Origin: Candidatus Latescibacterota bacterium
GTDB taxonomy: Bacteria > Latescibacterota > UBA2968 > UBA8231
DNA length: 64,000 nt
Assembly (NCBI GenBank): GCA_965206595.1
Contig: OZ242214.1
Span: 6,912,001 to 6,976,000 of the forward strand
Reading direction: 5' to 3'
Both the position numbers and the translations under genes were made by a program. Shown in pieces: positions 57,868-58,119 of the stretch. The notes beneath the pieces were generated by a model. It was not told the DNA's origin. It worked only from the letters and a program-made list of their open reading frames with translations, and did no database searches. The stretch's first letter is position 1, and every line of letters begins with the position of its first letter.

Positions 57868-58119
57868 TCAGTCAGAGCACTCGCATTCCCAAGTCCCTGG
57901 GTCGGTGAGCTTAGCCCGGTACTCGTCGTGCCCAAGACGGGAGCAGTTGTAGGCGCATTTTCCGTCCGCCTCGCTGCTCGTGGAGGCGTACACCGTGTGG
58001 CAGTGGTGCCAACTGGTGCTCGAGTAGGCCTCCACCCACGACACGCCTCCGGTGGTCAGCAGGGCGCCCGCCAGGATGGCGAGGACGGCCTTCATGCTCT
58101 GCTTCAACCGATGTCTCAT
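57868..58119 (-). CDS. Small secreted Cys-rich peptide with defensin-like CxxxC/CxC motif
   Basis: AGGAGG RBS; Sec-type signal ending VEA; 52-aa predicted mature part with C40, C55xxxC59, C79xC81. Confidence 0.75.
   Translation of the reverse strand: MRHRLKQSMKAVLAILAGALLTTGGVSWVEAYSSTSWHHCHTVYASTSSEADGKCAYNCSRLGHDEYRAKLTDPGTWECECSD

Follow-up and report, generated by a model that had tools for sequence, protein, structure and literature searches.

A family of small, predicted secreted peptides with a probable two-disulfide CS-alpha-beta-type cysteine arrangement beside CBM9-like genes in Candidatus Latescibacterota

The closest described counterparts of the gene reported here are peptides of the kind called CS-alpha-beta (cysteine-stabilized alpha/beta). 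The two-disulfide form of the CS-alpha-beta fold is defined by two centipede toxins, SsTx and Sm2a (PMC7232367), and peptides of this class are said to be widespread in prokaryotes and older than the defensins (PMC12284004, citing Dash et al., 2019). The accounts we draw on give no function for the bacterial two-disulfide members, and the two-disulfide peptide Sm2 reportedly lacks antibacterial activity (PMC12284004; PMC7232367). Bacterial defensins have been sorted into classes I-V in a survey of 74 peptides, all with three or four disulfides and a GxC motif between beta1 and beta2; the survey lists sources in the Proteobacteria (including myxobacteria), one in the Acidobacteria and one in the Actinobacteria, and reports none from Latescibacterota (Cardoso et al., 2024, PMC11561630). 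Bacterial CS-alpha-beta bacteriocins are represented by actifensin (PMC12284004) and xanthusin-1 (PMC11561630). Among histidine-rich plant defensins (HRDs), metal binding was reported for four of four expressed proteins and antifungal activity for two of the four (PMC7557933). Here we analyze a window of 64,000 nucleotides from a Candidatus Latescibacterota bacterium (contig OZ242214.1, positions 6,912,001 to 6,976,000, forward strand), in which a gene at 57868-58119 on the minus strand encodes an 83-aa precursor whose mature part carries the CxxxC and CxC motifs typical of this scaffold.

Our best explanation, to which we assign a probability of about 0.45, is that the gene encodes a Sec-exported CS-alpha-beta-type mini-protein of about 52 aa, belongs to a sigma-54 module and has an accessory or recognition role beside CBM9-like (carbohydrate-binding-module-like) proteins, the peptide family being young and specific to one Candidatus Latescibacterota lineage. 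The family, which neither Pfam nor NCBIfam annotates, is from an uncultured phylum, and its regulon and genomic partner are unusual for the known two-disulfide kind. It resembles the SLPTX15-like class (SsTx, Sm2a) in its length of about 50 residues, in its four scaffold cysteines modeled as a helix CxxxC and a last-strand CxC, and in lacking a GxC disulfide. To this plan it adds an N-terminal strand, an invariant His, usually a fifth Cys and a negative net charge, as well as predicted sigma-54 control and a fixed CBM9-like neighbor; the comparison does not imply common descent. AdDLP is counted among the bacterial cis-defensins. With these the family shares predicted secretion and, probably, a helix tied to a beta-sheet through CxxxC and CxC, but unlike classes I-V it has no GxC and only two disulfides can be drawn from its invariant cysteines. 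The HRDs are likewise His-enriched on a CS-alpha-beta scaffold and offer a precedent for metal binding by the fold (PMC7557933), although they are plant proteins with eight cysteines and no sequence relation to the family, and metal binding, a feature of the HRDs, is only proposed here.

The scaffold assignment comes from an AlphaFold2 model computed with a 21-row alignment. The model places a strand at residues 39-44, a helix at 48-61 and two further strands at 66-73 and 76-82, with confidence values (pLDDT) of 91-95 for the blocks covering residues 41-80 and about 95 over residues 40-83. C55 and C59 fall in the modeled helix and C79 and C81 in the last strand. The peptide is therefore modeled with a beta-alpha-beta-beta topology and the CS-alpha-beta cysteine arrangement, in which disulfides C55-C79 and C59-C81 would probably pin the helix to the last strand. 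To judge from the alignment, only two disulfides could form from invariant cysteines, which fits the known two-disulfide CS-alpha-beta class; the genome also contains a DsbA-family gene. Measured against the classical three-disulfide form, the model has CxxxC on the helix and CxC on the C-terminal strand, and the third disulfide (C1-C4) with its GxC gamma-core is absent: only four cysteines are invariant and one member in 34 has six.

Fold and profile searches did not single out the defensins. With the peptide model as query, Foldseek against the PDB returned nothing at E<=0.001 (best E 0.32), and a search of the ESM Atlas with the peptide gave no usable match. A wide search with VIA-align was headed by STM1478 (DUF1471-like; Z 5.3), a designed EHEE mini-protein (Z 5.0) and MVL (Z 5.0), and its defensin-like chains were SCR/SP11 (Z 3.9 and 3.5), PsDef2 (3.5), mytilin (3.4) and Sm2a (3.4), all of these values lying in the range that the tool calls a common arrangement. 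The top neighbors include the DUF1471/YhcN-type proteins STM1478 (2m2j), YdgH (4evu) and SrfN (2ma8), with Z values of 5.3, 4.5 and 4.4. These are small secreted enterobacterial proteins that share the beta-alpha-beta-beta topology over 51-53 aligned residues, but the identity in the structural alignments is 6-13%, the scores are again those of a common arrangement, and the peptide has no Pfam match. The copper-binding domain of APP, a small disulfide-stabilized helix-on-sheet, was also matched (7mrm_A, Z 4.6, rmsd 1.9, 47 residues; 3ktm_A, Z 4.3; 2m05, Z 3.8; rmsd 1.9-2.2 and 47-48 residues overall), although it is eukaryotic, has three disulfides and no sequence relation, and Z values of this size are non-discriminating. 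By sequence, a profile of the family searched against PDB sequences matched only the centipede toxins SsTx (E 0.38) and Sm2a (E 0.48), neither significantly; both alignments pair CxxxC with CxxxC and CxC with CxC. The structural alignment with Sm2a (chain 6bl9) ranked 42 with Z 3.4, rmsd 3.2 and 47 residues aligned. A preliminary description of this gene, made from the sequence, had read it as a small secreted peptide with a defensin-like CS-alpha-beta signature and had proposed structure prediction and structural searches. The scaffold part of that reading holds up, with four invariant cysteines, the expected helix and strand placement and a confident CS-alpha-beta-type layout. Membership in the defensins does not; no defensin Pfam family matched and the searches favored no defensin.

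The peptide has relatives, though few. Among 36 candidates from a search of 5.8 billion proteins, 30 matched at E<=1, none of them bearing a name or a Pfam domain, and a profile search of 1.84 billion cluster representatives gave only 18 matches at E<=0.001. For the peptide itself there was no Pfam family at E<=0.01 and no NCBIfam family at E<=1, and no defensin or toxin Pfam family appeared among the matches of the 32 aligned members even at E<=10. The source genome, a single 7.05-Mb contig of 63.7% G+C, holds eight matches at E<1e-3 in a single-protein search (the query counted) and 14 in a profile search, and at least ten paralogs of the peptide. The closest public genome record (labeled as a Candidatus Latescibacterota metagenome-assembled genome) has an ortholog 89% identical. 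By profile search, the family occurs in two of 61 relatives and two of 168 genomes of the phylum; both belong to one genus, a third genome of which (93% complete) had no match. The homolog search suggested by the preliminary description thus bore out a divergent family, with about 30 homologs that keep the CxxxC and CxC cysteines.

Conservation in this family is concentrated in the scaffold. In the alignment of 32 sequences, C55, C59, H64, C79 and C81 are invariant in the mature part, H39 and G63 nearly so, and H38 is kept in most members. Position 40 is G, D or C in close homologs. The odd fifth cysteine noted earlier is a family trait only in part: 26 of the 34 complete members have an odd number of cysteines (23 with five and 3 with seven, against 7 with four and one, P0034, with six), but C40 itself is not conserved and the position of the extra Cys varies. 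Members carry 3-7 His and have a mean net charge of -3.3, with 5 of the 34 positively charged, at most +3; the script behind these charge and His values cut the signal peptide by a crude pattern and left out one complete member (P0043) that the pattern missed, whereas the Cys counts were unaffected. These figures, together with the absence of GxC, agree with the earlier caveats that the peptide is His-rich and not cationic; an antimicrobial role is doubtful, and the gene context described below also points away from a free-standing defensin.

The features of the peptide gene are as follows.

57868-58119, minus strand: coding sequence of the 83-aa precursor (from the list of open reading frames, G+C at third codon positions, homologs, alignment invariants and the AlphaFold2 model)
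58027-58119, minus strand: predicted signal peptide, codons 1-31 (read from the sequence)
57871-58026, minus strand: predicted mature part, 52 aa
57868-57870, minus strand: stop codon
58125-58132, minus strand: Shine-Dalgarno site AAAGGAGG (read from the sequence; kept in the leaders of paralogs)
57783-57829, minus strand: intrinsic terminator, GGACGAGGG..CCCTCGTCC followed by T6 (from sequence and folding)

The open reading frame (ORF) encodes exactly the 83 aa given in the preliminary description, including a 52-aa mature part with C40, C55xxxC59 and C79xC81. Its N-terminus looks like a Sec signal peptide: it opens with the basic segment MRHRLKQSMK, continues into a hydrophobic core (AVLAILAGALL) and has V-E-A ahead of the proposed cut. 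An AGGAGG stands 5 nt ahead of the ATG, and the G+C content at third codon positions (GC3) is 0.83, compared to 0.83 in the neighboring SDR gene and 0.92 in the sulfatase gene. The hairpin after the stop codon is long and G+C-rich (minimum free energy -46.2 kcal/mol, z -2.74), and 3 of 200 shuffled sequences fold equally well; a second copy of its 3' arm and T-tract lies at 57763-57780. Where contigs from other runs cover the gene, those from X1, X4 and X5 show 0 differences and those from X7 show 2, these being four public runs from four studies, of which X1 is possibly the source sample of the assembly. Because of the Shine-Dalgarno site, the sigma-54-type promoter described below, the GC3, the terminator, the homologs, the invariant residues and the unchanged contigs in other runs, we conclude that the 83-aa ORF at 57868-58119 is a real gene. 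An ORF on the opposite strand (57721-58389, plus strand) was ruled out, because the pattern of conservation agrees with the minus strand, as do the ribosome-binding site, promoter and terminator.

Upstream and downstream of the gene, the module contains the following features.

58195-58209, minus strand: proximal sigma-54-type promoter GGCACG-N4-TTGCA (-24/-12; from sequence)
58227-58241, minus strand: distal copy of this promoter, inside a 32-nt tandem duplication
58177-58200, minus strand: (ATTGC) x 4.8 pentanucleotide repeat, which begins within the -12 element (from sequence)
58139-58162, minus strand: conserved 5' leader hairpin GGGGT..ACCCC (leader common to 8 distinct copies in two genomes)
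58380-58434, minus strand: three candidate activator-binding sites, TCGTATTAGATAC, TTGTATCAAATACG and the palindrome TCGTATTAAATACGA
58566-61774, plus strand: divergent sigma-54 activator (Reg_prop, Y_Y_Y, Sigma54_activat, AAA lid and a weak HTH_8, by Pfam)
56860-57647, minus strand: downstream gene for a secreted CBM9-like protein, the partner family (from ortholog comparison and the fold of an intact ortholog)

The consensus of sigma-54 promoters at -24/-12 is TGGCACG-N4-TTGCW. The candidate promoter CGGCACGCCTATTGCA, present twice through the tandem duplication (58191-58222 and 58223-58254), matches it at 11 of the 12 specified positions, and the genome contains rpoN (Sigma54_DBD, E 4.1e-60). 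The orthologous locus in genome G002 has a single promoter copy and no ATTGC repeat, and one X7 contig, spanning 57939-59332, is about 91 nt shorter between 58168 and 58622, so the promoter region 58177-58254 could be variable. The candidate activator sites lie about 170-240 nt upstream of the promoters, with an A-rich tract between. Five of the eight paralogs have GGCACG-N4-TTGC 74-122 nt before the ATG (74-76 nt in four paralogs besides the query) and a common layout of palindrome, A-rich tract, promoter and a near-identical leader ending in AGGAGG. Promoter and leader occur together six times in the genome, five times ahead of a peptide gene and once ahead of a 38-aa remnant. The palindrome GTATWNWATAC is found only 10 times in the 7.05 Mb, in seven clusters, six of which lie beside a peptide gene or the remnant; the seventh belongs to a module whose promoter drives the partner gene directly.

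The divergent activator has a strong Sigma54_activat domain (E 7.6e-66), and divergent genes with Reg_prop, Y_Y_Y and Sigma54_activat also stand beside the L002 and L003 paralogs, that is, at all three loci checked. From this arrangement we infer that the Reg_prop/Y_Y_Y activator drives the promoter via the palindromes. The activator gene of the window is spread over three frames (58566-60146, 60178 to about 60270 and 60272-61774), with breaks at 60119-60121 (AAA) and 60262-60270 (G9), both in homopolymers. The G9 run has one G fewer in X4, X5 and X7, and X4 also has one A fewer at 60121, whereas X1 is the same as the window; on paper, removal of both extra bases restores one continuous frame. 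The activators beside L002 and L003 are also split into two ORFs at the same region. The breaks may be homopolymer or systematic assembly errors, or they may be real, strain-specific lesions.

Distant paralogs have a protein identity of about 40%, and their coding regions are less conserved than the leader (58120-58176, minus strand; GGGTGAACCGGGGTAGCGAACAGGCGCGACCCC...AGGAGG), which is shared with seven other loci. The hairpin of the leader is the centroid structure, but the folding energy is no better than that of shuffled sequences (z -0.18), and we do not claim a structured RNA element. Searching Rfam with 57600-58600 gave only two chance-level matches, to animal RNA families.

The neighbor downstream belongs to a large family of its own. 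In the window, likeness of the partner copy to the intact ortholog of G002 ends by eye near residue 262 and tblastn reaches residue 294; no tblastn segment covers residues 295-336, the conserved C-terminal part is lacking (56770-56870), and the frame has no stop before it runs antisense through the convergent sulfatase gene. The intact G002 partner (P0046, a secreted protein of about 330 aa) has no family in Pfam or NCBIfam at E<=1. Its model (pLDDT 79.7, predicted TM score [pTM] 0.80) superposes on the family-9 carbohydrate-binding module 1i82_A with Z 17.6 and rmsd 2.6 over 188 residues (Foldseek E 5.6e-8), followed by the heme-binding subunits of ethylbenzene dehydrogenase (Z 10.6) and nitrite oxidoreductase (Z 10.4). 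By its modeled fold, the partner is a CBM9-like secreted protein. Its C-terminal motif SVSWGRIKASLE is conserved and poorly modeled. The partner family comprises at least 769 proteins at E<=0.001 among 8000 candidates scored. Across the phylum it occurs in 86 of 168 genomes, and within the taxonomic family in 71 of 75. It is greatly expanded in the source genome, where tblastn gave 94 segments and where 70 N-termini are present, often arranged in tandem in arrays of up to five.

Seen from the peptide, the pairing with these genes is strict. All eight paralogs from the single-protein search lie 139-460 nt upstream of a partner gene, and in G002 a partner gene is downstream at all eight loci fetched (seven distinct). 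Seen from the partner, a small CxxxC...CxC ORF precedes 12 of the 70 N-termini, two of these ORFs being distant eight-Cys forms, and most partner genes and most partner-bearing genomes are without the peptide. A complex prediction for the mature G002 peptide and its cognate CBM9-like protein, each with its own alignment, gave a score of 0.01 and a mark of 0.32, which weighs neither way.

The rate of change along the precursor completes the picture. By the Nei-Gojobori method, the mature part has a dN/dS of 0.92-1.25 and the signal peptide one of 0.22-0.70, for six pairs of four genes of the query's subfamily (two per genome) with 2-8.5 synonymous differences per pair in the mature part. Because the mature dN/dS is about 1 and the scaffold residues are nonetheless invariant, the comparison suggests a rigid frame with fast-changing surfaces.

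We propose that these elements work together as follows. The divergent Reg_prop/Y_Y_Y enhancer-binding protein would probably switch on the sigma-54 promoter through the rare palindromic upstream sites, and the peptide gene would be the first to be read in the module. The strong hairpin terminator would separate it from the one or more CBM9-like genes that follow; therefore, the peptide is probably made in excess over the CBM9-like proteins. After Sec export, the mini-protein of about 52 aa, with its one strand, helix and beta-hairpin, could act outside the cytoplasm as a rigid scaffold that displays two fast-evolving surfaces, the N-terminal segment and the beta2-beta3 region, alongside a constant His pair (H39, H64) and, in most members, one unpaired Cys. 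Most likely it would serve, beside the CBM9-like, putatively glycan-binding proteins, as an accessory or recognition factor that binds metal, is redox-active or tethers itself covalently. The paralog family, the sigma-54 control and the strict pairing with CBM9-like genes shift the likely function away from a free-standing defensin. A cationic defensin that targets membranes or lipid II appears less likely, as the classical reading is weakened by the anionic character of the peptides, their missing gamma-core, the absence of exporter or immunity genes beside them and the gene context. The family provides a concrete bacterial case of the two-disulfide scaffold with several handles for study: a sigma-54 activator and its operator, a CBM9-like neighbor, an invariant His, a usual unpaired Cys and fast-changing loops. 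If metal binding or a lectin-like partnership proves true, it would represent a non-antimicrobial role for the scaffold in bacteria.

Taken further, the same elements could form a two-part, fast-turnover system for extracellular recognition, in which an activator with a propeller of the glycan-sensor type switches on a hypervariable two-disulfide mini-protein whose His pair and free Cys bind metal or tether it covalently to a target or to the lectin-like partner. We regard this extension as speculative and rather improbable. If true, the system would be previously undescribed and would, for the first time, define a regulon and a genomic partner for a two-disulfide CS-alpha-beta family in bacteria; it would also give a handle on the role of a supposedly ancient fold before its use in defensins and toxins.

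Several observations weigh against the accessory role proposed above. The fold searches place generic beta-alpha-beta-beta proteins (Z 5.0-5.3) above the defensins (Z 3.4-3.9). The CBM9-like proteins do not need the peptide, because the partner family is present in 86 of the 168 genomes and the peptide in 2, and because a module without the peptide is read from the same promoter. The dN/dS near 1 rests on few changes and could also mean relaxed constraint. That the odd Cys varies in position speaks against a single, fixed metal site based on that residue. Finally, with a frameshifted activator and a truncated partner at the window locus, this copy may be decaying.

Of the other explanations, a defensin-like weapon survives best, and we still consider it unlikely. 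The peptide would be a secreted two-disulfide CS-alpha-beta bacteriocin or toxin, directed at competing microbes or at a eukaryotic host or grazer, with loops shaped by an arms race. A conserved signal peptide followed by a fast-evolving mature region is the pattern of toxin and antimicrobial-peptide families, and it is the pattern seen here (mature dN/dS 0.92-1.25); the predicted CS-alpha-beta-type arrangement, the many paralogs per genome, the weak profile matches to SsTx and Sm2a and the existence of bacteriocins such as actifensin and xanthusin-1 are also in keeping with a weapon. However, the members are anionic, with 5 of 34 positive, and they lack the GxC gamma-core and third disulfide that the survey describes in all 74 bacterial defensins (PMC11561630), while Sm2, of the two-disulfide kind, is reported not to be antibacterial (PMC12284004; PMC7232367). 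The context is no more favorable: among the neighbors examined (sulfatase, SDR, CBM9-like protein and activator), no immunity-like or exporter gene adjoins the peptide gene and the constant neighbor is CBM9-like. The sole Peptidase_C39 match of the genome is at C1:6173141-6173518, about 300 kb from the nearest paralog. A class II bacteriocin with a double-glycine leader was ruled out by the Sec-type hydrophobic core and by the distance of this only C39 peptidase. Should cell killing be true nonetheless, the family would be a new, anionic type of bacteriocin.

Less probable again is a stand-alone periplasmic or extracellular buffer or chaperone for Cu, Zn or Ni, in which case the link to CBM9-like genes would reflect shared regulation only. 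The APP copper-binding domain binds Cu via His residues. That domain is among the structural neighbors of the peptide, whose family has its own invariant H64, nearly invariant H39, 3-7 His and usually one spare Cys; the non-WHH subfamilies, moreover, usually have a His after the predicted cleavage site, and His-rich plant defensins are reported to bind metals (PMC7557933). On the other hand, no metal-homeostasis gene occurs among the neighbors examined, the Z scores do not discriminate, the query's subfamily is without the N-terminal His, and the fast evolution of most surface positions would be unusual for a metal chaperone.

A related and very unlikely possibility is that the four invariant Cys and the His hold a metal in a zinc-knuckle-like Cys4 site, with no disulfides formed, and that the peptide is not a CS-alpha-beta member at all. 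The invariance of all five residues and the lack of any defensin family match by sequence would suit such a site. Cysteines of exported proteins are, however, expected to be oxidized in cells that bear DsbA, and the peptide has a Sec-type signal peptide in a genome with a DsbA-family protein. Further, CxxxC on a helix facing CxC on an adjacent strand is the standard disulfide geometry, and the model has this layout and is confident without any metal. It is highly improbable that the window copy has lost its function and is decaying together with its module: the activator in three frames, the truncated partner, the dN/dS of about 1 and a neighboring module with only a 38-aa remnant could be read in this way, but the ORF is intact with all scaffold residues kept, three runs have contigs with an identical copy, no damage is seen in the ribosome-binding site, promoter or terminator, and both activator frameshifts are in homopolymers whose extra bases are lacking in other runs.

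Some minor observations concern the surroundings and relatives of the module. Some runs labeled sponge metagenome share 0.12-0.14 of the words of the window, a small part that we do not take as a sign of habitat. Outside the query's subfamily (non-WHH), the predicted cleavage usually falls at Ala|His, and the mature peptide would begin with His. In the CBM9-like partners, too, a nearly invariant His (A32|H33) follows the predicted signal cleavage site. The module without the peptide (L028:1730-2850; G000:C1:6469730-6470850) has two palindromic sites, then a stretch of about 850 bp of lower G+C content and then the promoter; this insert, which is unannotated, may be a mobile element. A second module in the window (62845-63966, minus strand), whose promoter at about 64042 lies just outside it, has the same promoter and leader followed by the 38-aa remnant ORF (63851-63966), and its CBM9-like gene is interrupted near 63438-63441 by a short low-G+C stretch. 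Lastly, two longer small ORFs (about 112-127 aa) lie upstream of the partner genes that start at 2440097 (minus strand) and 5331828 (plus strand) of G000:C1. In both, an additional N-terminal part that includes a hydrophobic stretch precedes a C-terminal domain with eight Cys, which contains CxxxC and a terminal CxC, and the two may be distant multi-disulfide relatives of the peptide family.

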